From the sequence record QB031383.1: DNA of 64,000 nt, one strand, 5' to 3'. Below, in pieces: positions 4,162 through 62,494 of the stretch (position 1 is the stretch's first letter; each line of letters opens with the position of its first letter). The notes beneath the pieces are model-generated. The model was not told the DNA's origin. It saw only the letters and a list, made by a program, of their open reading frames with translations, and did no database searches. This stretch comes from a phage. The translations under genes and the position numbers were made by a program.

Positions 4162-4764
4162 ATGACTGATAAAATTTCCCTGAAAAAAGGCTCTAGCGAA
4201 AAAATTTCCCTGAAGAAAGTTGCTCCGGCTCTGAAAGAACTGCGCCTGGAATTCTCTTGGAAATCTGATTCTAAACTGGATCTGGATGTAAGTGCACTGG
4301 TTTGTCGTCACAATGCCGCTGGCAATCCTGAAATGCTGTCTGCACGTCATCTGGTTTGCTATGCTAACAAGTTTGATCCTGAACGTTCTACCTTCGCTGG
4401 TGACGATGTTCGTGATGGAACTGGCAGCATGGAGCAGATTGATATTACTCTGGCTAAAATCTCTCCTGATGCACAAGAGATTGCCTTTGTTCTGACCATT
4501 GATGATGATACAGGTCTGAAACGTTTTGGTCATGCTTCTGAAGGTATGCTTAAAATCTTCGACTCCGAGCGCAATGTGGAAATTCTGGATTTTGACTTCC
4601 TGGCTCCTGAAGTAGCTGGCAACACAATCTGCCACGTGGCTTCCTTGGTTCGTGAAGATGGGGAATGGAAGCTGAAAGCATATGGTGTAGGTAAAGCTGG
4701 TCTGGATATTTGTGATGTGGTGATGGCCTTCGGTGGTAAAAAAGAATGGTATGAATGTCCATAA
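4162..4764 (+). CDS. terD: TerD-domain stress response protein
   Basis: 200 aa; TerD-like features (N-terminal KISLKKG repeats, LDLDVSALV, GDD..DG acidic Ca-binding-type motifs); strong RBS GAGGAG. Confidence 0.65.
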   Translation: MTDKISLKKGSSEKISLKKVAPALKELRLEFSWKSDSKLDLDVSALVCRHNAAGNPEMLSARHLVCYANKFDPERSTFAGDDVRDGTGSMEQIDITLAKISPDAQEIAFVLTIDDDTGLKRFGHASEGMLKIFDSERNVEILDFDFLAPEVAGNTICHVASLVREDGEWKLKAYGVGKAGLDICDVVMAFGGKKEWYECP

Positions 4765-12628: not shown

Positions 12629-15225
12629 TGAGTAAGTTTACATGGGATATTGAAGCAAACGGATTGTTGAATAATGACACTATCGATTATTTAGCTAGTC
12701 CTTATCGTCTCAAAGACACATTTCAAATGCACTGTATTGTCTTAGAGAACCATGAAACAGGAGAAATAGTAGCTTTCCACGATGGCCCTAAATACATCTT
12801 TGATGGGCGTCCTTATGAAGAGTCAGATGGTAAATACACATATGTTCTTAAAGAGTATGTGGCGCAAGATTACACACATTTTCAACTAAAAGATTTCCCA
12901 GACTTTATTAATCATGAAGGTTATTTTAAAGATAAGCCTGAATATCTGGTTGAAATGGCTGTGGCTCACAACGGTATCAACTATGACTGGTTGGCTACAA
13001 AACTGTTTTATGGCTTAGATTACAGTGTTAAATATAATACGTGGGGCAAAAATAAGGTAAAACTTATTGACTCCTTGATTTTGAGTAAAGTGTTAAACCC
13101 AGATCGAAAGATTGAAGGCAAATCAGGACATAGCTTGGCAGCACTTTCTCGAAAGGCAGGGGGTGATGTAAAAATAGATTTCCGTAAAGAGATTCCAGAA
13201 GAAGATCGATTTAAGACTTTTGCTGCTGATATGCTTTATTACTGTATCTATGACAACAAAGCCAATACGAGCGTATATAATTACCTTATGGAAGAATGGG
13301 GTGATTATGATAAATGGGAAGGTCCATTTGAACTTGAACAACGTGTAGCAGACATTATTACACGCCAGGAACACCGTGGGTTTGCTTTTAACATGAAGCA
13401 AGCAGAAGAGAACCTTGCTTTTTTGGATGCAGAAATGGAGCGTCTTCGTTTACTCGTTGAGCCTATTTTGCCACCTAAACCAGCAACAAAAGGTTATCTT
13501 AAGGCTTTTATTCCACCTAAGTTGCAAATTAAAAAGAACTTAGAGCCAACTAACCATATGATCAATTTTGCTAAGAAACATGATGGTCATTTGGAAGAGA
13601 GGGATGGCGATTGGTGGTTAGTTATGTTGGGGAAAGAGTGGAAACTGCCAGTTGCAGCAGATGAGCCTCTATGTGATCCTAACATTCCTGCAACATTGAA
13701 CGATACAACCCATATTAAAAACTGGCTTGTAGGATTAGGTTGGGTACCGTCTGAATATAAAGATAAAGACTTGACTCTTAAATCTGGCACCAAGATTAAA
13801 AAGAGCGAGGAAGAACTTCAGAAAGGTATTCGAGCTTACGTTGAGCAAACTCTATCTTCTAATTTTTGTCAGGATCGTTGTGATCATCTGGAGTGCACAC
13901 CGGAAACCTTGGAAAGGAAGATTCAAGAGCGTATAGCAAAAGGTAAAGGTCGCGGTCTTAAAGTATTGACTAACCCGTGTTTTACCAAAGGTCAGGAAAA
14001 AGAAATTTGTCCTAACCTGCAAGCTTTGGGTGAGAAGTTTCCTTATGCTACACAGATTGTAGAATACTTAACGTATAAGCATCGTAGGAACTCTATTTTA
14101 GGTGGCGGTGCTGATTGGGAAGAAGATGAAGAAGATCAAGAATACGATAAAGGTTTCTTAGCCGCAGTAAGGGCTGATGGGCGTATTCCTACCCCAGCCG
14201 CTACATGTGATGCTGCAACCTCTCGTATGAAGCATAGATCTGTAGCTAATATTCCTCGTGTCACATCTTTGTTTGGATGGGAGATGCGTAACTTGTTTGG
14301 TGTAGAGGTTCCTAAATACTTCCAGATCGGCTACGACTTCGACTCTTTGGAAGCAAAAATTGAATCACACTACTGTTGGCGGTACGAGCCGGAGCCACAC
14401 GAATATTGTAACGCTCTGTTGTTAGAGAAACCTAACGATGTTCACACAATGATGGCAAAACGTATCACTGAAACTATTGGACGTAAATTTGAACGTAGTC
14501 CTGCTAAATCTGTTAAGTATGGTATTACCTATGGTGCACAAGCCGACAAGGTTGCTAAAACAATTGGTAGCGATAAGTTTACAGGTCAATTGGTGTTTGA
14601 TGCTTTCTGGGAAGCTGCATTCCCATTGGCGCGTCTTAAAGAACGTTTAAACGATTTTTGGGTTAAGACTGGTAAACAATATGTTTTGGGTATTGACGGT
14701 CGTAAGGTTCCTACTCGTTCTGCTCACGCGATTCTTAACTCTCTGTTCCAAAGTGGTGGGGTTATCTGTGCTAAACGTGCAATGGTTATTTATGACGACA
14801 TGATCGAAGAAGAAGGACTAAGTGTTGACTTCTTTAAAGATGACTGGAAGAATAAAGATTTCGTGCAACAAATGATTGCATATCACGATGAAGCCCAGCT
14901 TGAAGTTTCTCGTAACCTTGTAGAATTTAAATGGTTTTCACCTGAATCATTAGGTTGGAAGAAAGTAGACGATCCTGAAGAACAAAAGAAAATTGATAAA
15001 GAATGCCTTGCTAAAGTCGAAGAATGGAAGCATAATAAGGAAAAAGAGACAGGGCAAATTTGGGCTAACATTCATGAATCTCCCAAAGGTGGATGGTTTA
15101 CAGCCTATAGTCGGGCAGGTGAACTTGCTGCTTTAGCTGTTACTAAGGCTGGAGAATTTTACAATCTTAACGTTCAGCTTACTGCCGGATATGATGTGGG
15201 TAATTCCTGGGCCACATGTCACTAA
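12628..15225 (+). CDS. DNA polymerase, family A, with N-terminal 3'-5' exonuclease
   Basis: GTG start; Exo I motif WDIEANG; Pol I-type motifs: motif B-like KSVKYGITYGAQ, motif C AYHDEAQLEV. Confidence 0.85.
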   Translation: MSKFTWDIEANGLLNNDTIDYLASPYRLKDTFQMHCIVLENHETGEIVAFHDGPKYIFDGRPYEESDGKYTYVLKEYVAQDYTHFQLKDFPDFINHEGYFKDKPEYLVEMAVAHNGINYDWLATKLFYGLDYSVKYNTWGKNKVKLIDSLILSKVLNPDRKIEGKSGHSLAALSRKAGGDVKIDFRKEIPEEDRFKTFAADMLYYCIYDNKANTSVYNYLMEEWGDYDKWEGPFELEQRVADIITRQEHRGFAFNMKQAEENLAFLDAEMERLRLLVEPILPPKPATKGYLKAFIPPKLQIKKNLEPTNHMINFAKKHDGHLEERDGDWWLVMLGKEWKLPVAADEPLCDPNIPATLNDTTHIKNWLVGLGWVPSEYKDKDLTLKSGTKIKKSEEELQKGIRAYVEQTLSSNFCQDRCDHLECTPETLERKIQERIAKGKGRGLKVLTNPCFTKGQEKEICPNLQALGEKFPYATQIVEYLTYKHRRNSILGGGADWEEDEEDQEYDKGFLAAVRADGRIPTPAATCDAATSRMKHRSVANIPRVTSLFGWEMRNLFGVEVPKYFQIGYDFDSLEAKIESHYCWRYEPEPHEYCNALLLEKPNDVHTMMAKRITETIGRKFERSPAKSVKYGITYGAQADKVAKTIGSDKFTGQLVFDAFWEAAFPLARLKERLNDFWVKTGKQYVLGIDGRKVPTRSAHAILNSLFQSGGVICAKRAMVIYDDMIEEEGLSVDFFKDDWKNKDFVQQMIAYHDEAQLEVSRNLVEFKWFSPESLGWKKVDDPEEQKKIDKECLAKVEEWKHNKEKETGQIWANIHESPKGGWFTAYSRAGELAALAVTKAGEFYNLNVQLTAGYDVGNSWATCH

Positions 15226-22655: not shown

Positions 22656-25600
22656 TTAGGTTGTTGGCACATCTACTACTGGCGTTGGGCGAATAACCGC
22701 AGTATTACCTACAGAAACATTACTGGAATCATTAGGTATGGTTTTAATTCTAACTCCAGCACTTGTAGGCGTTACAATTGGATCTGCAATGTCTATTTTA
22801 ACTGGGTTAGTCCACGTATCATTATCTTGATAAGGTGCACGAGTAATAACTGTGTCCAAATCTGCTCCACCTACGCCAGCACCAGGAATACGGATACGTG
22901 TCCCTGCTGACAGAGGGTAATGATACAACCAAGAAGCATTTGTTGCTGTCCCGTTAGGAGTCAAGTTCTGTGTCAGGAAGGTATCTCCTGCCTGTGTAGC
23001 TCGAATACCGAAAGCTGGGATATCTGGAATATATGCCCCACTTGTTGTTACAAGGAAGAACGTATTATCCGCCTTGACTATCATATCACCTTTGTCAAAC
23101 TCTTTCCCTGTTGGGAAATGCATTCCATCAATGTTTCGACTAGGATTAGGCTCTAAGTAATAAACTTTGCCCGTTGTCCCTACAATAGCTCCAATACCAC
23201 CTGCGATATTGGTATACATATTAGCTTCAACATTACAGTTGACACGATGAATATCCGAGTAACGGCAACGGCTCCACTGTGGACGACCAGTAACCATCGT
23301 CTTGCCATCTGGGTAACAGTTTACGTTAACCATTTCAAGAACAGATTTTTCTCTACGGAAGAATCCATCATAAAATGTCCCTGGACCAGATTCAGGTTGA
23401 CCAACACAATCGAAGATATTACAGGTGATGTTAGACATTGAAAGCCAAGAAGCTATACCGAACAACTGCAATGCAGCGCAACGAATATTTTCAAAGCTAA
23501 CTCTGTTTTCATAACCTGGCCCAGCGGAAACTCCCGCAAAAACACGCCCAGTTTTGGTGTGAATGTTACGAACAGAATAGTTAAAACATGGATTTGAAGG
23601 TCTGCCCTGTGCCGGAACTACCGGATTACCCTCTTCATCCAGAACTGCGTTAGTTCCCCACTCCAAATAAATCATACGGATATTACTTGCAAGTGTGCTA
23701 CCGTCTGTTTTAGGCTCTCCATAAACACCGTCAATCGTAAAATCTTTACTTCCGTACATTACAACTGCGCCAGTTGCCAAACCTGTCCCAACAGATACAG
23801 TCTGATCTGGATCGCCATGAATGTTTTCGATAGAGATATTACGACCAACTTCTACGTGGACAATCTGACGACAACGTTTTGCAAAAACGTTACGAATTGT
23901 AATATTCTTGCAATATTGATCATCAGGGATTCCGTAACCATATGGTCCTTTACCAGCTACACCGATACCGATACCCCAGTTGGACAGAGGAATAGGAGCG
24001 TTAGTCCCATCGATATTAGACAGGTAAATATTCTCAATCACACAACCATCGTCATAATGTTTATTGATGACGTTCAGTTCTATTGCATCACCTTGCATGT
24101 CCATGAAGGTAAGGTTACGGAAGACACCACGTGTTACTGGTTCCCCTGTTCCTTGTTGAAGGATGCCATACAACCCGTTTTTAAAAGTACAGTTATCAAT
24201 TTCAAAAGTACCTGATATTGGGTTGCCTTGGAATACCAAGCTACCAACTTGACCTGCGCGAGGAGCACCGTCCCACAAACAATCGAACATGCGCACAGCA
24301 CCACCCCAATACATAACACGAGAGTTACGGAAAGTTGTGCCTTCTACTGTAGCATTTTGCACACGATAGTCGCGTTGACCACGGAACACACCCCCACGCA
24401 AAGTGATACCTTGAATATCAAAAGAGCTTGTCGTGAAAGTCATATCGCAACCGTAAGCATCGAGAATCTTGCTTTTCGAAGCTTTTGCTGCTAACAGTGC
24501 CGCTTGGAAAGCTGCTTCTGGTGTGGTATAGGTAGTTGTATTGTTAGCAAATTCGGACAAGTAGACAACATCGAATAAATCGTTGTATGTTCCACCACGA
24601 GGGGTTAACAGTCCTTCTGTATTAGTCAGAACCCATGCATTTGGACCTAATCCTCCGCTCGTCTCCAAGGTATCGGAAGCCAAAATACTTTTTGGTAAAC
24701 TTCCAGCCCAACGATAACGACCAGCGCCACGTCCAATCGTCTGATTTTTAGCTGTCAGAGTTACATTATTACCAAAGCTTGTAGGCAAATGAACAAACTG
24801 TCCACGCTCAACAGCCAGTGCAGAAAGGTCTACAGATCCTCCAGAATAAGTCATTACTCCAGAAACAGACAAGGATGTTAAAGTGCCTGTAATGTTAGGA
24901 GGTAATGTGTAGGAAGACTGCGCTACCGGATCATACAGAGCTTTAATCCCTGTTAACGATTGACCTGCTGTTGCGTAAGCCACCTCATCATCTAACAAAC
25001 CATACTTACGAGCAATAGTTTGCAGAGGGACTTTATCCATGCTTTCTGTTAGTTCTTCCGTTTTTGTTTCTAAACTAACAAGACGGTTCTCTAGATTAGG
25101 ATCTGTATCTGCTGAAGCTACGATTTTACCAATATAAGCAAAAAGCTTGTTTGGTAGTCCTGTTGCAGGATCGTGTCCCAAAGGTTCAGATAAGATGATC
25201 TTACTATCTTCTATACGGAAAGCTTCCCCCAGAACCTGAATAACACCATTGATCGTAACAATAGCACTATCAAAGATGTAAGGAGGACTAATTACTGTTT
25301 CATAACCCGTTGCACCAGAGTATACCCACGGGGTGACTTCTGTTGCTAATTGTTCTGTTTTCAGTCCCCACAATACCCAGTTGTTATCTCCTACTGGAGT
25401 CCCTTGCATAGGGATTGGGTTAACCAATGTAGCGTTAGGGGCATAGTAATAACCGCTCAATACTCCATTCTGGAAATAACGAAGTTGGTTAAAAACTGTT
25501 TCGTTTGTGCCTTGCGCCCAATCCAATGGGCTTTTAAAGAAAAAGTTGTCAACAAGGGCTTTTCTCAGGGTTGGTATCAACCCTGATTCTGTTTCAATAC

Positions 25601-56471: not shown

Positions 56472-56550
56472 TGGAGGCGGGAATCGGATTTGAACCGATG
56501 ATCTCCAGCATATGAAACTGGCGAGGACGACCAGACTCCTCTATCCCGCT
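56472..56550 (-). tRNA. tRNA-Met (anticodon CAT)
   Basis: Hand-folded cloverleaf: T-arm ATCGG-TTCAAAT-CCGAT, anticodon loop TTCATAT, CCA encoded; 1-72 position appears mismatched (A/C). Confidence 0.55.
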
Positions 56551-56552
56551 AT

Positions 56553-56627
56553 TATGTATCCCGTGCTGGATTCGAACCAGCATCACAATAAGCTGTGGAA
56601 CTCTTATCCTGTAAGTCTAACGGGAAA
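56553..56627 (-). ncRNA. tRNA-like element, anticodon arm not resolvable (possible pseudo-tRNA)
   Basis: Canonical T-arm GCTGG-TTCGAAT-CCAGC and 6-bp acceptor, packed between two tRNAs, but no standard D/anticodon arms. Confidence 0.3.
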
Positions 56628-56628
56628 C

Positions 56629-56702
56629 TGGTTGTTTCGACAAGAATCGAACTTGTGTCTCACGATTATCAGTCGTGGGTTCTACCATTGAACTACGAAA
56701 CA
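56629..56702 (-). tRNA. tRNA-Ile (anticodon GAT)
   Basis: Acceptor TGTTTCG/CGAAACA, D-arm GTTC-AATGGTA-GAAC, anticodon stem CACGA/TCGTG with loop CTGATAA, T-loop TTCGATT, CCA encoded. Confidence 0.7.
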
Positions 56703-56708
56703 TTTGAT

Positions 56709-56785
56709 TGGTCGGAATTGCAGGATTCGAACCTGCGACCCTACGCTCCCAAAGCGTATGCTCTACCAAACTGAGCTAAATTCCG
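56709..56785 (-). tRNA. tRNA-Pro (anticodon TGG)
   Basis: Acceptor CGGAATT/AATTCCG, D-arm GCTC-AGTTTGGTA-GAGC, anticodon loop TTTGGGA, T-arm GCAGG-TTCGAAT-CCTGC, CCA encoded. Confidence 0.75.
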
Positions 56786-56790
56786 TTATA

Positions 56791-56866
56791 TGGCTGGTCT
56801 GTCTGGATTTGAACCAAACCTACGACAGTCAAAGTGTCGTGTGCTACCGGACTACACTACAAACCA
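56791..56866 (-). tRNA. tRNA-Gln (anticodon TTG)
   Basis: Acceptor with U1-A72, anticodon stem CGACA/TGTCG with loop CTTTGAC, T-loop TTCAAAT, discriminator G, CCA encoded. Confidence 0.7.
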
Positions 56867-56964
56867 ATAAATCATTTAATGAAGGGCAACCAGAAGAGGT
56901 GTGAGAGAAGGAGAAAACCATGAGTAAAAGAGAAAGTTTTCTGGCAACCCTTTATTAAATAATT

Positions 56965-57038
56965 TGGAGCGTTCTACGAGGATCGAACTCGTGCCGCCGA
57001 CTTGGAAGGACGGAATGCTACCGCTACACCAAGAACGC
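56965..57038 (-). tRNA. tRNA-Gly (anticodon TCC)
   Basis: Acceptor GCGTTCT/AGAACGC, anticodon loop CTTCCAA, T-arm ACGAG-TTCGATC-CTCGT, discriminator U, CCA encoded. Confidence 0.6.
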
Positions 57039-57049
57039 CCTACATCTTT

Positions 57050-57079
57050 ACTATACTACATTTTACTATTGGTTGTCAA
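57050..57079 (-). promoter_or_regulatory. promoter-like element (aCTATTGACAa, -10-like TATAGT) directly upstream of tRNA-Gly
   Basis: Minus strand TTGACA-18-TATAGT; one of four copies of the same -35-containing motif. Confidence 0.5.
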
Positions 57080-57352
57080 TAGTTTTATTGAGCGGGACAG
57101 TGACGAGTATCCCATTGGGTGACTAGCCCTACGTTCGGTAAGCTAACTTAAAATAATACAAAACCAAAGTCAAATATTATTCTTCGTTGCTGTCGATGGG
57201 AGAGCCGCTTCTTCTTTTGCCCCATCCAACCCTACTCCGGTCAAGTTTCAGGTAACTCTTTTTGTGATCAACACAATACTAAGAACACTGTCTTTCGAGC
57301 AGACCTTGTGCACAGGATACGACGATCAATCACAGTGCTCTTAATGTTGTGT

Positions 57353-57427
57353 TGGTGCTCCCACTCTGAATCGAACAGAGATCCACGGATTACAAAACCG
57401 TTGTAATAGCCATTATACTATAGGAGC
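57353..57427 (-). tRNA. tRNA-Thr (anticodon TGT)
   Basis: Acceptor GCTCCTA/TGGGAGC (one G-U), anticodon loop TTTGTAA, T-arm CTCTG-TTCGATT-CAGAG, CCA encoded. Confidence 0.6.
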
Positions 57428-57433
57428 AAAGCT

Positions 57434-57511
57434 GGGACTCGGCAGGATTCGATACCTGCAATTCCAGAAGCCTCTTGGCGACTGGGGGGTTTACCTTAAC
57501 TCTACAAGTCC
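57434..57511 (-). ncRNA. tRNA-like element with 8-nt T-loop and no recognisable anticodon arm (possible pseudo-tRNA)
   Basis: 7-bp acceptor GGACTTG/CGAGTCC and T-arm GCAGG-TATCGAAT-CCTGC; internal region forms a long imperfect hairpin instead. Confidence 0.3.
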
Positions 57512-57518
57512 ATAATTC

Positions 57519-57604
57519 TGGCGATGAGTATAGGATTTGAACCTATATCGTTCTTTCGAACACGGATTAACAGTCCGCCGCTTAAACCATTCAGCCAACT
57601 CATC
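57519..57604 (-). tRNA. tRNA-Asn (anticodon GTT) with an unusually long variable arm
   Basis: Perfect acceptor GATGAGT/ACTCATC, Asn-type anticodon arm GCGGA-CTGTTAA-TCCGT, discriminator G, CCA encoded; 15-nt variable region GTTC-GAAA-GAAC. Confidence 0.55.
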
Positions 57605-57610
57605 TTAATT

Positions 57611-57698
57611 TGGTGGTGAGTGATGGAGTCGAACCACCCGAATCGCAATGATAACAGATTTACAGTCTGCCCCGCTACCCCTACGGAATTAACTCACC
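57611..57698 (-). tRNA. tRNA-Tyr (anticodon GTA), type II
   Basis: Acceptor GGTGAGT/ACTCACC, anticodon arm GCAGA-CTGTAAA-TCTGT, long variable arm, T-loop TTCGACT, CCA encoded. Confidence 0.65.
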
Positions 57699-57828
57699 TA
57701 AATACTAATATTTAAATTCTTTTTAAAATAGCCAGTGTTCACACCACTAACTATGAGTTATCGGTAAAGTGGTTACCGCCACTTGCCGAAGATTTACTCT
57801 GCTAAAGTAAGCTATATTAAAAAGAACT

Positions 57829-57914
57829 TGGCGGTAGATGTAGGACTCGAACCTACACGCCGTTTCCGACTACAGTTTAGCAAACTGTCGTGGCTACCAT
57901 TTCACCAATCTACC
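57829..57914 (-). tRNA. tRNA-Ser (anticodon GCT), type II
   Basis: Acceptor GGTAGAT/ATCTACC, anticodon stem ACAGT/ACTGT with loop TTGCTAA, long variable arm, T-arm GTAGG-TTCGAGT-CCTAC, CCA encoded. Confidence 0.7.
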
Positions 57915-57918
57915 AATC

Positions 57919-58009
57919 TGGCGGAAGGAGGGAGAGTCGAACTCCCAAGGCTCTTTCAAGCTCGGCGGTTTTCAAGACCGTTTTCGTCGCCACGTCGATT
58001 TGCCCTTCC
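57919..58009 (-). tRNA. tRNA-Ser (anticodon TGA), type II
   Basis: Acceptor GGAAGGG/TCCTTCC, anticodon loop CTTGAAA, long variable arm, T-arm GGGAG-TTCGACT-CTCCC, CCA encoded; D-arm atypical. Confidence 0.55.
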
Positions 58010-58018
58010 ATACTTATA

Positions 58019-58047
58019 ATCTAACATAAAATAATGTTAGTTGTCAA
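58019..58047 (-). promoter_or_regulatory. promoter-like element (aCTATTGACAa, -10-like TTAGAT) upstream of tRNA-Ser
   Basis: Minus strand TTGACA-17-TTAGAT; shares the TATG-TTAG block with the 58605 copy. Confidence 0.5.
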
Positions 58048-58243
58048 TAGTTTTTTAAAACATTTTACCATGAATGGTGACTCCACCAACCCCCGTTCTC
58101 AACGAACGGTGCTCTTCGAGCATTTATGTCTTCTAATATAACCGTGGCCTTTGTTTATAATGTCTGACATACTTGCCTCATTCTCTGCCACCATGATCAG
58201 TAGTGGGTTCAAATCACTTGAGCTAATTCATGTTAAAATGTTC

Positions 58244-58318
58244 TGGTGTCTTTACAAGGAATCGAACCTTGACTAAGAGTTTAGAAGACTCCTGTGCTAT
58301 CCATTACACCATAAAGAC
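58244..58318 (-). tRNA. tRNA-Arg (anticodon TCT)
   Basis: Acceptor GTCTTTA/TAAAGAC, D-arm GTGT-AATGGATA-GCAC, anticodon loop CTTCTAA, T-arm CAAGG-TTCGATT-CCTTG, CCA encoded. Confidence 0.7.
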
Positions 58319-58320
58319 GT

Positions 58321-58395
58321 TGGTGGCCCTGGCTGGTTTCGATCCAGCTACCTATCGGTTATGAGCCGACAGCTCTCCCATTGAGCTACAGGGCC
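58321..58395 (-). tRNA. tRNA with CAT anticodon (Met or lysidine-type Ile2)
   Basis: Acceptor GGCCCTG/CAGGGCC, D-arm GCTC-AATGGGA-GAGC, anticodon loop CTCATAA, non-canonical T-loop ATCGAAA, CCA encoded. Confidence 0.6.
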
Positions 58396-58604
58396 ATAAA
58401 TGTGGTAACAGAGACGCTGACGATTGTAGAGAACCGCTACATTCTCTAAGACCAAGCCCAACTTTCAGCGTAAAAGTTCTTGAGCCGAGACTATTCCTTT
58501 TCCTCTTTGGTAGCTAACCTCTGAAGAAGTAGTCTCTAACACTACCGCAGTGCAAGCCCCTCTTAACAAAAGTCAACGACCCTGTTACCACACTTGATGA
58601 ACGT

Positions 58605-58633
58605 ATCCTAACATATGAAGGATACGTTTGTCA
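58605..58633 (-). promoter_or_regulatory. promoter-like element (aCTATTGACAa, -10-like TTAGGA) at the upstream end of the tRNA array
   Basis: Minus strand TTGACA-17-TTAGGA; would transcribe the structured spacer and the tRNAs. Confidence 0.45.
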
Positions 58634-58641
58634 ATAGTTAT

Positions 58642-58890
58642 TTAAGCATATTCTGCTACTTCTTCACTATCTTTCTTTTCCAGAAGAGCAACAACCAAAG
58701 CTTCTGCGTTAAAAGTATTAATTTCAAGATCCATCTCTCGCATCAGAGCCAAGAAATCAATAACTTTAACATCTTTAGTGATTACAATAGAAGTTGTACC
58801 ATTGTTTTCAGATGTGTATTTTTCTGGATGGAAAAGAAAAACTGCATTGCCGTTACCATCTTCAAACACGTGTTTTTCTAATAGAGACAT
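58642..58890 (-). CDS. hypothetical protein
   Basis: Start set at the internal ATG preceded by AGGAGGAAC (82 aa) rather than the longer track ORF. Confidence 0.4.
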   Translation of the reverse strand: MSLLEKHVFEDGNGNAVFLFHPEKYTSENNGTTSIVITKDVKVIDFLALMREMDLEINTFNAEALVVALLEKKDSEEVAEYA

Positions 58891-58898
58891 TGTTCCTC

Positions 58899-59150
58899 CT
58901 AATCTGTTAGTTGTTCGTCCTCTACCAAGTTTGACACGAGAACGTCTGTTATACATTGATGCTGATAAACCCTTTCGGGACTATCATCAAAAGCCAAACC
59001 TGTGCAAATAGAACAGAGGTCTGATTCCTTGATGACTCCATTTTTATCACGTCTGGAGTGGTTTGTCAAATGCCTATTACAAGCACGGCACCTAAAATAA
59101 AAGCTATTTTGCATATATCCTTCGAACCCCAAATGGGGAGTGATCGGCAT
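58899..59150 (-). CDS. hypothetical Zn-finger protein
   Basis: 83 aa; CRACN...CSIC cysteine pairs. Confidence 0.4.
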   Translation of the reverse strand: MPITPHLGFEGYMQNSFYFRCRACNRHLTNHSRRDKNGVIKESDLCSICTGLAFDDSPERVYQHQCITDVLVSNLVEDEQLTD

Positions 59151-59187
59151 CTCCTCACTTCTAGTTTAGCACGAAGGATATCTTAAG

Positions 59188-59373
59188 TCAACTAGGAATA
59201 ATTTTATCCTTTTTGGTTTCATAACCAGTCCAATCTAAATCCTCCCAGCCTTCATCATCGTCTAACACATTGTCATCATCATAAGATGCAATGTTATAAA
59301 TAGAACGTGGATTACAAGACATACAATCTTTAATAGGCACATGATGCCATTTGCACGGATTCTCGCTAATCAT
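59188..59373 (-). CDS. hypothetical small acidic protein
   Basis: 61 aa; GGAGGTG RBS; first gene of the leftward unit leaving the divergent region. Confidence 0.45.
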   Translation of the reverse strand: MISENPCKWHHVPIKDCMSCNPRSIYNIASYDDDNVLDDDEGWEDLDWTGYETKKDKIIPS

Positions 59374-59405
59374 TGCACACCTCCATTCTTGTTAAGATGT
59401 TCCGT

Positions 59406-59434
59406 ACTGTACTTCATACTGATCTATAGATCAA
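59406..59434 (-). promoter_or_regulatory. leftward promoter candidate (TTGATC-17-TACAGT) in the divergent control region
   Basis: Read on the reverse complement; spacer contains the palindrome GATCTATAGATC. Confidence 0.45.
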
Positions 59435-59781
59435 GTATTATTTATAATAATTTATTATTTTATTTTTAATTGATAGAAGTTGATCTGTACGTACCAGTTC
59501 TGATACACTGTACCTGTTTGTTAGATCTAATAATTATTTATTATTAATATTTAATAATTATTAATCTAGTACGGAGTACAGTACTTGAGTACAGAGTACT
59601 ACATCAACAACCTAAAACCTTAACTCGCTGCGCTCGTTAATAGATTTCTAGGGTAGCATACTTCGAACACAAAAGTCAAGAGTTTTATTAAAAATTATTT
59701 TCTGTGTGCAAAAACCTTGCTTAAACAGGTAGCAATAGTATAGCCTATAACATAAGCTTCATAAGAGGCTCGTAGAGCAAG

Positions 59782-59810
59782 TTTACTTACTAGGTAAGGT
59801 GATTTATCAT
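59782..59810 (+). promoter_or_regulatory. rightward promoter candidate (TTTACT-17-TATCAT)
   Basis: Upstream of the first plus-strand small gene (RBS AGGAGG, ATG 59855). Confidence 0.35.
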
Positions 59811-59854
59811 CTTATATATAAAAAGTGAGTCAGAGACGCGTTTAGGAGGCTAGA

Positions 59855-60178
59855 ATGAGATTTACAAGACAAGAGGTAGTTGTGCTGGACGAAGCAATGA
59901 CAATGATCGTCTTTTACTATGAGGATATCTTCTGTGCAGCATATCATTTAAATGACATTCAGATTGAATGGCAGCAGATAGCATTCCTGTTGGACAAGAG
60001 TAATCATTTGGATGGCTTTGAGTATTTGGAGTGGGATGGTGCAAAGGAAGTTAAAATTGTAGGGTTAAATCACGATCAGATTGTTGACATGCAATGTAAG
60101 TTGTGTCATTATCAGTTCTCAAACAAAGTCAAACTCGAAAGGCAATTGGAGGTGGTTAAAGATGATAGCACTAATTAG
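59855..60178 (+). CDS. hypothetical protein
   Basis: 107 aa ORF with TAGGAGG RBS. Confidence 0.45.
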   Translation: MRFTRQEVVVLDEAMTMIVFYYEDIFCAAYHLNDIQIEWQQIAFLLDKSNHLDGFEYLEWDGAKEVKIVGLNHDQIVDMQCKLCHYQFSNKVKLERQLEVVKDDSTN

Positions 60179-60274
60179 TGAGAATCCAGTCCTGACAACA
60201 ATTGTTCTGATTTTTGCCATGTGTGTGGTTCACGATATTCTGGTAAGTTATTTTGACAACAAAGGAGGTAAGAA

Positions 60275-60469
60275 ATGAAAGACGTTATTCAAATGGTATT
60301 CCGTGTAACTCTAGATGGTATACACGTTGTTAAAGGCACACAGAACTACACAGAAGCGAAAGAATACTTCTTAGAGTGGATTGATACACTGAAGACACAA
60401 GATGTGTCCTACAGCCGTGTTACGCTTACTGGCGACCATACCCCAATCATGGAGTACGTAAAGAAATGA
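60275..60469 (+). CDS. hypothetical protein
   Basis: 64 aa; AAAGGAGG RBS. Confidence 0.4.
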   Translation: MKDVIQMVFRVTLDGIHVVKGTQNYTEAKEYFLEWIDTLKTQDVSYSRVTLTGDHTPIMEYVKK

Positions 60470-62149: not shown

Positions 62150-62494
62150 ATGAAAGTTTGGATAGATGATATGCGGAACCCAGCCGACTATGGACAGGAA
62201 GATGCAATTTGGTTTAAAACGTCACAAGAAGCTATGGCCTTTCTCAATGATCCTGCTAAACTGTATCGAAGAGTAACCGAGTGGTCTTTTGACAATGATT
62301 TAGGTATGGAGTCAGACCAAGATGGGTATGATGTTTTCCTGCACCTGGAAGAACTTCTGGCGTTTGGTAAACCTTGCTTTGGTTCACCTACCATTTTCGT
62401 GCATACTTCTAATCCCGCCGCTGGGGATAAATTCATGCTTGCAAAAGAATCCATGCAGCGTTATGGTATTAAAATGATTCGTGTGCACTACTAA
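62150..62494 (+). CDS. hypothetical protein
   Basis: 114 aa; AAGGAGG RBS. Confidence 0.45.
   Translation: MKVWIDDMRNPADYGQEDAIWFKTSQEAMAFLNDPAKLYRRVTEWSFDNDLGMESDQDGYDVFLHLEELLAFGKPCFGSPTIFVHTSNPAAGDKFMLAKESMQRYGIKMIRVHY

Follow-up and report, generated by a model that had tools for sequence, protein, structure and literature searches.

A probable compound bidirectional promoter region between the divergent gene blocks of a phAPEC8-like myovirus

In phage T4, oriF and oriG each combine a middle promoter with a downstream DNA-unwinding element and form an R-loop, and the primary origin of T7 couples the promoters phi1.1A/B to an AT-rich tract. Promoter-proximal RNA hairpins that modify RNA polymerase occur twice per genome as nutL and nutR in lambda and as putL and putR in HK022, and the rrnB P1 promoter of Escherichia coli carries an A+T tract of the upstream (UP) element type. 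In the large lytic coliphage rV5, all predicted promoters are sigma-70-like, including bidirectional ones between the divergent genes 10 and 11, and none could be placed between genes 81 and 82, where they had also been expected (PMC3606486). DNA mini-hairpins of the consensus GCGNAGC/GCGNNAGC, in which N alone is variable, are found at phage and plasmid priming sites and in phage promoters, namely at the complementary-strand origins of G4, St-1 and alpha3, at ssiA of RSF1010 and in the early promoters of phage N4 (Kimoto & Hirao review, PMC13037366). Here, we describe a gap between two divergent gene blocks, positions 59374-59854, in a 64,000-nucleotide stretch of phage DNA (sequence record QB031383.1; the whole stretch is called the window), and compare it with these systems.

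The window derives from a Phapecoctavirus genome (phAPEC8-like, Stephanstirmvirinae). The 1.5 kb around the gap shares 99.6% identity with Escherichia phage Mt1B1_P17, whose complete genome was assembled at 151,202 bp and in which window position 59374 corresponds to position 97,110; the gap region recurs at an identity of at least 95% in 63 of the 71 matching phage records. An initial annotation of this DNA had placed about 460 bp without open reading frames (ORFs) between a leftward and a rightward gene block and had suggested divergent promoters, operators and possibly a replication origin there. The interval does exist and measures 481 bp; it contains spurious ORFs of 25-46 aa only, and no credible small ORF was found within 59374-59854.

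Promoter-like sites conserved in five lineages

The gap was compared with the syntenic gaps of phiWec188/179, phi92 (Justusliebigvirus), Klebsiella phage KP13-26 and Citrobacter phage Tr1, all found via the first rightward protein (42-94% identity). A Seunavirus locus reached via the 61-aa first leftward protein is not a divergent junction and was left out of the comparison, and an IMG/VR search for loci related to the first rightward protein gave no match. Four promoter-like sites with correct spacing and A+T-rich upstream tracts are syntenic in the five lineages, and the sequence between them has diverged; each gap holds two leftward and one or two rightward sites of this kind. In the window, the four sites (P_L1, P_R1, P_L0 and P_R3) each match the sigma-70 hexamers at 8-9 of 12 positions with spacers of 17-18 nt, and P_L0 and P_R1 also have an extended TG. 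P_L1, P_L0 and P_R1 are each conserved in 5/5 lineages and P_R3 in 4/5. The overlapping divergent promoters of the initial annotation are thus supported by comparative footprinting, with sigma-70-like -35/-10 pairs syntenic in all five lineages. Direct observation covers the sequence features with their statistics and conservation, as well as P_L0 polarity. Together, these indicate that the gap is most probably a compound bidirectional early-promoter region used by the sigma-70 RNA polymerase of the host of this phAPEC8-like myovirus; promoter activity, start sites and expression timing are predictions.

P_L1 (59406-59434, minus strand) is a predicted sigma-70 promoter adjoining the first leftward gene, with a -35 TTGATC (59434-59429), a spacer of 17 nt and a -10 TACAGT (59411-59406). 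Its syntenic counterparts are TTGACT-18-TAGAGT in phiWec188, TTGACT-17-TAGAGT in phi92, TTGACC-17-TACACT in KP13-26 and TTGACC-17-TAGTAT in Tr1; the TCAA of the P_L1 -35 is invariant in our alignment A2, and the 22 nt upstream of P_L1-type sites are 73-95% A+T. The perfect palindrome GATCTATAGATC, reported earlier at 59421-59432 and found at exactly that position, overlaps the -35 and the spacer of P_L1, and the repeat GTACTGTACT overlaps its -10. We also compared eight members of the phAPEC8 clade that are >94% identical; in one of them, BI-EHEC, the P_L1 -10 is TACAAT. Between the back-to-back P_L1 and P_R1 lies AT block 1 (59436-59471), a 36-nt A/T-only run that is likely a shared UP element or an easily melted tract. 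An AT block is present at this position in 5/5 lineages, and its length varies in BI-EHEC, phAPEC8 and dw-ec.

P_R1 (59480-59509, plus strand) is a predicted rightward promoter that converges on P_L0. It has a -35 TTGATC (59480-85), an 18-nt spacer, an extended TG at 59501-02 and a -10 TACACT (59504-09), and the palindrome GTACGTAC (59487-94) sits inside the spacer. The analogous sites are TTGATC-18-TGtTACTAT in phiWec188, TTGTTA-17-TGtTAGTAT in phi92, TTGATT-17-TATAGT in KP13-26 and TTGTAA-17-TGtTAGTAT in Tr1. P_R3 (59782-59810, plus strand), a predicted TTTACT-17-TATCAT promoter, adjoins the first rightward gene and is followed by a Shine-Dalgarno sequence AGGAGG (59844-49) and an ATG at 59855. 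It lies within the block GGTGATTTATCATC, which is conserved in alignment A2, and its counterparts are TTGACA-17-TATCAT in KP13-26 (11/12), TTGACT-17-TACCAT in Tr1 and TTGACT-17-TATCTT in L023.

A GATC (Dam site) is present inside the -35 TTGATC of both P_L1 (59429-59434) and P_R1 (59480-59485), and the same observation takes in window positions 59421-59432 and 59524-59527. AGATCT/GATCT recurs in the equivalent regions of phi92, phiWec188, Tr1 and KP13-26, and GATC is not depleted in the genome (observed/expected 1.2). A Dam-methylation-sensitive activity of the predicted promoters P_L1 and P_R1 is conceivable.

With this arrangement, leftward transcription of the small ORFs and the tRNA cluster would start from the tandem promoters P_L0 (distal) and P_L1 (proximal), and the P_L0 transcript, or the non-template strand, would begin with a very stable GNA-loop hairpin. 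Rightward transcription would proceed from P_R3, and probably also from P_R1, through ~34 kb of small genes of unknown function and then into DNA-metabolism genes. The palindromes and repeats flagged earlier would be mostly promoter anatomy: GATCTATAGATC, GTACTGTACT and GTACGTAC fall on hexamers or spacers, and the AT blocks would act as UP-type upstream tracts. AT block 2 and the AGTAC repeats, described below, would represent a recent and plastic inverted duplication of the P_L1 core.

The region resembles the divergent sigma-70 early regions of large lytic coliphages, such as rV5 genes 10/11 (PMC3606486), in its host-type hexamers, 17-18-nt spacers, extended -10 TG, back-to-back placement between opposed gene blocks, A+T upstream tracts and tandem promoters before tRNA genes. 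In contrast to the rV5-type regions, it packs four to five promoter-like sites into 481 bp, including the convergent pair P_R1/P_L0; the -10 of P_L0 is an invariant TACCCT, and a lineage-specific inverted duplication lies between the convergent promoters.

Several observations weigh against a simple promoter region. The hexamers are imperfect (8-9/12), and a simple consensus scan of the region yields 9 sites compared with 5.6 ± 2.1 in shuffled sequences; prediction from a single sequence being this weak, the case for promoters rests on conservation. A 2-nt insertion in BI-EHEC stretches the P_R1 spacer to 20 nt, which makes P_R1 a weaker case than the other predicted promoters, and the phi92 equivalent of P_R3 is poor. 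The invariant CCC in the -10 of P_L0 and the invariant hairpin downstream of it are not explained by a plain sigma-70 promoter, and the extreme duplex instability of the region fits an origin equally well. BI-EHEC keeps its dyads and loses its GTAC sites (see below), which hints at a constraint, or at a templated mutation process, that is superfluous to the promoter model. Finally, a literature search for mapped transcription starts or origins in Stephanstirmvirinae found none.

The P_L0 module and its mini-hairpin

The best-conserved element of the region is the predicted leftward promoter P_L0 (59650-59702, minus strand), with a -35 TTGACT (59679-74), an 18-nt spacer, an extended TG at 59658-57, a -10 TACCCT (59655-50) and an A+T-rich UP-like tract at 59680-59702. 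Read on the minus strand from 59679 down to 59624, the P_L0 module is TTGACT-N18-aTGcTACCCTA-N12-CGAGCGCAGCGAG, and this is the most conserved non-coding sequence of the comparison. TTGAC(A/T)-N17/18-TGnTACCCTA is present in all lineages compared, and P_L0 is unchanged across the eight phAPEC8-clade genomes save for one change in EP57.

Downstream of the -10 lies a promoter-proximal hairpin (59620-59640; the minus strand is the RNA-like strand) of the form TTAA-C-GA-GC-GCA-GC-GA-G-TTAA, whose outer stem is variable and which also has tandem G.A pairs and, as its core, a GCGNAGC mini-hairpin. Its 13-mer box, CGAGCG(A/C)AGCGAG, is invariant across lineages except at the centre, which is C, A or, in a second copy in Mt1B1_P17, AT. 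The purine-rich strand of the box is predicted to fold with a C-G pair, tandem G.A/A.G pairs, a G-C pair, a C-G pair and a GNA loop. The core thus has the GC/GC stem and the G-N(N)-A loop of described mini-hairpins and varies only at N, reading GCGCAGC in the window and GCGAAGC in relatives, with GCGATAGC in the Mt1B1 second copy; the flanking positions are invariant. As in mini-hairpin DNA, these features are confined to the purine-rich strand, and the stem extension covaries. The flanks that extend the stem are TTAA/TTAA in the window, UUGCC/GGUAA in Tr1, UGAC/GUUA in the phi92-like IMG/VR contig L025 and AGTATG/CATACT in the distant contig L062.

Across 17 distinct sequences, 75.7% of cells were paired, with a covariation score of 0.33 compared with 0.16 ± 0.04; none of 500 shuffles reached the observed score, and slid controls gave 0.10-0.20. 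Seven of these sequences come from unrelated contigs (L009, L010, L015, L021, L030, L035 and L041) that match the box + TAGGGTA pattern and have no TTGAC -35, so the count supports the hairpin and not a wider promoter family. Matches to box + TAGGGTA in unrelated IMG/VR contigs are about as many as a rough chance estimate predicts, and in many of them the box is likewise enclosed by a stem; the seven were rejected as members of the P_L0 module, given their missing -35 and their near-chance number. With a stricter IMG/VR pattern that demanded the -35, the module was found only in Stephanstirmvirinae-like contigs.

In three lineages, the P_L0 module is present twice per genome. The second copies, at ~22,960-23,060 in Mt1B1_P17, 10317-10372 in L025 and 4703-4758 in the Klebsiella-phage-like IMG/VR contig L020, read TTGACT-N17-TGCTACCCTA followed by the mini-hairpin, and each of the three precedes genes of its own strand by ~100-120 nt. 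This placement fixes the polarity of the module as a promoter, which in the window is leftward. The second copy of Mt1B1_P17 heads a block with helicase, ribonucleotide reductase and DNA polymerase genes and has a GATA loop (GCGATAGC). At a divergent junction in L062 (6457-6610), a more distant contig (IMG/VR contig 3300031133_000010), two TTGACT-N17-TACCCTA promoters stand in tandem; the GNA mini-hairpins that follow them differ, one being GAGCGAAGCGA with the 6-bp outer stem AGTATG/CATACT and the other CCGAAGG.

There is a small chance that this combination of a promoter and a covarying-stem GNA mini-hairpin (C-GA-GC-GNA-GC-GA-G) is an undescribed dedicated cis-element of Stephanstirmvirinae early operons. 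The hairpin may then form in the nascent transcript, or else in the displaced non-template strand, and either render RNA polymerase termination-resistant or stabilize the transcript, in a nut/put-like manner, or hold open an R-loop that primes replication at this locus. Like nut and put, the P_L0 hairpin is present in two copies per genome, each closely following the strong predicted promoter of a long operon, with a conserved loop and a variable, covarying stem; the setting is also similar, in that one of the operons contains ~2 kb of untranslated tRNA genes that would be exposed to Rho. Unlike nut and put, the putative element shows no similarity to boxA, boxB or put, and no N-like protein was identified. 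It also differs from the known mini-hairpins by its position downstream of a sigma-70-type promoter, by its tandem G.A flanks and by its occurrence in a double-stranded DNA myovirus that has no known virion RNA polymerase.

The GTAC cluster and the inverted duplication

The initial annotation had pointed to several GTAC-containing repeats, and 10 GTAC sites are indeed clustered in 59404-59599, where 0.40 are expected (P about 2e-11); AGTAC/GTACT occurs 9 times in the region against 0.19 expected. Elsewhere the motif is rare. GTAC is depleted across the 64-kb window (62 sites vs 229 expected) and in the complete Mt1B1_P17 genome, where 143 sites compare with 534 expected under a mononucleotide model or 457 under a trinucleotide Markov model; the genome-wide ratio of observed to expected is 0.27-0.31, i.e., GTAC is about 3-4-fold under-represented. 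The cluster in the gap is the only GTAC cluster in the 151-kb genome. Perfect 12-bp palindromes are not enriched across the window (19 vs 20 ± 4 in shuffles), and the gap region holds 2 of them where 0.14 are expected, together with 7 palindromes of 8 bp (1.3 expected). In addition, the single-strand DNA fold of 59400-59605 has a z of -4.8.

AT block 2 (59522-59568) is an imperfect AT-rich palindrome specific to the phAPEC8 clade; it is A/T-only from 59528 to 59565, in keeping with the AT-rich reiterated units noted at first, and in this tract Tandem Repeats Finder detects periodicities of 17 and 7. It contains the 12-bp palindrome TAATAATTATTA at 59552, and its predicted DNA hairpin (59522-59568) has a folding energy of -7.8 kcal/mol (z = -4.1). 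The AGTAC array (59568-59599) follows with five units that start at 59568, 59575, 59580, 59588 and 59595 and are thus irregularly spaced by 7, 5, 8 and 7 nt. Inverted copies of GTACTGTACT had also been described: the copy at 59404-59413 is where it was said to be, but the positions given for its partner, 59581-59590, read GTACTTGAGT, and the real inverted copy, AGTACAGTAC, occupies 59575-59584 within the AGTAC array.

This long-range inverted repeat is accounted for by a larger relationship. Segment 59529-59584 is an inverted quasi-copy of 59404-59459 (local alignment score 40 vs 18.5 ± 3.2 in shuffles); the source comprises the -10, spacer and -35 of P_L1 with AT block 1, and the copy comprises AT block 2 and the first AGTAC units. 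The four other lineages (phiWec188, phi92, KP13-26 and Tr1) lack both the GTAC cluster and AT block 2. Within the clade, dw-ec lacks 15 nt, which equals two AGTAC units, and the AT tracts and the CCTTAAAA unit differ in length among members. The latter is the short unit of CCTAAAACCTTAA (59611-59623), whose copy number varies between isolates, with an extra unit in anhysbys and UP17.

In BI-EHEC, nine of the 10 cluster GTAC sites are changed to GTAT or ATAC, and all five array units are affected. Over 49 kb of aligned sequence, it has lost 26 of 54 GTAC sites, compared with about 2.6 expected at 1.2% divergence (P about 2e-20), almost always by transitions to GTAT/ATAC, and the loss is heavier in the cluster (9/10) than elsewhere (17/44; P = 0.004). 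From this excess, we conclude that GTAC is under active counter-selection or methylation-linked decay and that the motif itself is not required in the cluster; the pattern suggests that a GTAC-specific restriction system or methylation-linked decay acts on the genus. The dyad symmetries are kept in BI-EHEC: GTACGTAC becomes the perfect 10-bp palindrome GTATGCATAC, and among the right-arm sites, the two with a pairing partner in the left arm now read ATAC, owing to a G-to-A change in one case and an inserted TA in the other; the remaining three, which are unpaired, now read GTAT. Selection for pairing may have retained this symmetry, as may templated correction from one arm of the quasi-palindrome to the other.

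AT block 2 and the AGTAC array may also have no function at all, being a recent inverted duplication of the P_L1 core modified by slippage, whose richness in GTAC was simply copied from the GTAC-containing -10 region. We consider this possible, if on balance doubtful. The quasi-copy relationship of 59529-59584 and its absence from other lineages speak for this, and copy number and length vary among isolates that are >95% identical. The cluster GTAC sites were lost more readily than others in BI-EHEC (9/10 vs 17/44), as expected of unconstrained sequence, and by eye the copied arm has no acceptable promoter spacing. However, 10 clustered GTAC sites persist in 7 of the 8 aligned clade genomes despite clear genome-wide avoidance of GTAC, arm-to-arm complementarity is preserved in BI-EHEC, and the segment lies exactly between convergent promoters.

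Alternative roles and genomic setting

The bidirectional promoter region might also serve as an internal, transcription-primed replication origin, a role that is compatible with the promoters and that we regard as unlikely. P_L0 and/or P_R1 would transcribe into the AT blocks, and a persistent RNA-DNA hybrid, perhaps with the mini-hairpin on the displaced strand, would prime synthesis. AT blocks 1 and 2 form the least stable 50-, 100- and 200-bp duplex of the 151-kb genome, by roughly 4-5 standard deviations: the 50-bp values are -45.1 and -46.3 kcal/mol (mean, -64.3 ± 3.8), and the 200-bp value is -216 (vs -257 ± 8.7). AT block 2 is the least stable 50-bp duplex of the genome and AT block 1 is one of the two least stable, and the two blocks are its most A+T-rich 40-bp windows (97.5%). 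The strong predicted promoter P_L0, 80-210 nt upstream, is aimed into the AT blocks, and both P_L0 and P_R1 face AT block 2, so a predicted promoter reading into an unusually unstable A+T tract is present. The arrangement recalls T4 oriF/oriG and the T7 primary origin: the genome is linear and terminally repetitive, the site is internal, and the predicted promoter is directed into the DNA of the genome that melts most easily. In addition, the dyad symmetry is significant, and a linear genome with 329-bp terminal repeats needs an internal origin somewhere. Mini-hairpins are, moreover, associated with priming sites (PMC13037366).

Other evidence is neutral or argues against an origin here. Unlike in T4 and T7, the promoter is a predicted host-type one, the AT tracts lie ~80-210 nt downstream of P_L0 rather than adjoining it, and the P_L0 module also occurs at a second site without such a tract and hence is not origin-specific. 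Other lineages lack AT block 2 and the AGTAC array, which vary within the clade, AT tracts upstream of strong promoters are ordinary, and the replication genes are >40 kb away, with no initiator gene adjacent. DnaA boxes are not enriched (8 vs 10 expected in the window, with one relaxed box in the region at 59705-59713), and the region has no match to the IHF consensus. Neither a DnaA-box cluster nor regular iterons were found beside the unstable tract, the AGTAC units being irregular, non-conserved and variable in number. Cumulative GC skew, proposed in the initial annotation as a full-genome check, does have a local minimum at the gap, but all four skew turns in the genome coincide with gene-strand switches and the global minimum lies at ~19-20 kb; GC skew was rejected as an origin marker since it follows gene strand. 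The authors of the rV5 genome came to the same negative conclusion on GC skew for that phage (PMC3606486). Separately, Mt1B1_P17 has 816 bp without annotated genes at 13,042-13,858, with the most A+T-rich 100- and 200-bp windows outside the gap region; this segment is a candidate alternative origin or other cis-element.

An operator role of the GTAC/AGTAY repeats and of the palindromes (GATCTATAGATC, GTACGTAC and the GTACTGTACT/AGTACAGTAC long-range pair), through which a dimeric or multimeric phage or host regulator would switch the early promoters off or on, is quite unlikely. The motifs are enriched far beyond chance and overlap the promoter cores, where operators act, and BI-EHEC alters the sequence and yet preserves its symmetry; such symmetry, however, can persist without selection by templated correction between quasi-palindrome arms. 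The motif is not conserved beyond the phAPEC8 clade, the AGTAC units are irregularly spaced, and dw-ec without two units and BI-EHEC without 9 of the 10 GTAC sites show no obvious loss of viability. No DNA-binding domain was detected in any of the ten flanking proteins. Comparison by eye with LexA, CRP, Fur and TrpR operators revealed some likeness to parts of the region for TrpR half-sites (GNACT/CTAG) and for Fur-like AT palindromes; their spacing does not fit and they are not conserved, and these candidates were dropped.

A role of the gap as packaging (pac) site or as physical end of the genome is effectively refuted: its clustered short repeats around an AT tract loosely resemble the P1 pac site, and one GenBank record (nieznany) opens inside it, but it is about 54 kb from the nearest end of the Mt1B1_P17 record. 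A 328-bp terminal repeat has been reported for phage Schickermooser (PMC6563267), whose record has an identical 329-bp direct repeat at both ends. The ends of the Mt1B1_P17 record are bounded by a homologous terminal repeat (1-322 and 150,874-151,196) inside ~1.8 kb of non-coding DNA, and terminal repeats that bound the records in this way indicate a linear genome with short terminal repeats. A terminus or pac site in the gap was rejected on these grounds.

The flanks of the gap are as follows. On the left, the minus strand carries the 61-aa gene (59188-59373), more small ORFs and 10 tRNA genes (56472-58395); on the right are plus-strand genes, the first starting at 59855. In Mt1B1_P17, the minus-strand block to the left (57,288-97,109) contains structural genes, terminase, 10-11 tRNAs and three small ORFs, and the plus-strand block to the right (97,591-131,768) contains small genes of unknown function and then ligase, exonuclease and ribonucleotide reductases. 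The ten gap-flanking proteins are short, and their PHROG matches are all in families of unknown function; the only Pfam match among them is cREC_REC (cyclic-phosphate processing receiver domain; E = 6.5e-17) in a 114-aa gene of the rightward block (62150-62494, plus strand). The first leftward protein has a Cys/His-rich N-terminus (C7, H10, H11, C17 and C20), a very acidic C-terminal half and no family annotation, and its N-terminal similarity reaches Salmonella Seunavirus phages. The tRNA cluster (minus strand; Met x2, Ile, Pro, Gln, Gly, Thr, Asn, Ser and Arg) lies downstream of the leftward promoters and amounts to ~2 kb of untranslated RNA that would be open to Rho-dependent termination.

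A covariance-model scan of 58300-60300 against Rfam 15 gave tRNAs and chance-level matches only: no family was found in 59374-59809 at E <= 1, and the only match touching the gap was a chance-level CsrC (59810-59914; 15.2 bits vs a gathering score of 279). No intrinsic terminators were found in the gap region. Between P_L0 and P_R3, the phiWec188/179 lineage has an extra 70-aa ORF with its own extended -10 promoter (L004, 2601-2871); the ORF is absent from the window, where 59686-59790 is a degraded version of that promoter region, and a probable relic promoter, TTGCTT-16-TATAGC (59717-59744, plus strand), aligns with the good extended -10 promoter of the phiWec188 lineage. Three GenBank records annotate a bare 55-bp 'repeat_region' without a note, which apparently marks two copies of the AT-rich repeat and carries no functional information.

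Taken together, the region is probably a known type of element, a compound bidirectional sigma-70 promoter region, in a known phage genus. The eye-catching palindromes are mostly promoter anatomy, and the most origin-like part is the least conserved. Phapecoctaviruses and their relatives (phi92 and rV5-like phages) are widely isolated as therapeutic candidates, and exact, testable coordinates are given here for the promoters that probably launch both early operons. Only two features go beyond the ordinary: the promoter-plus-mini-hairpin module, which is conserved across genera, and the purge of about half of the GTAC sites in BI-EHEC, which points to GTAC-specific restriction pressure on these phages.

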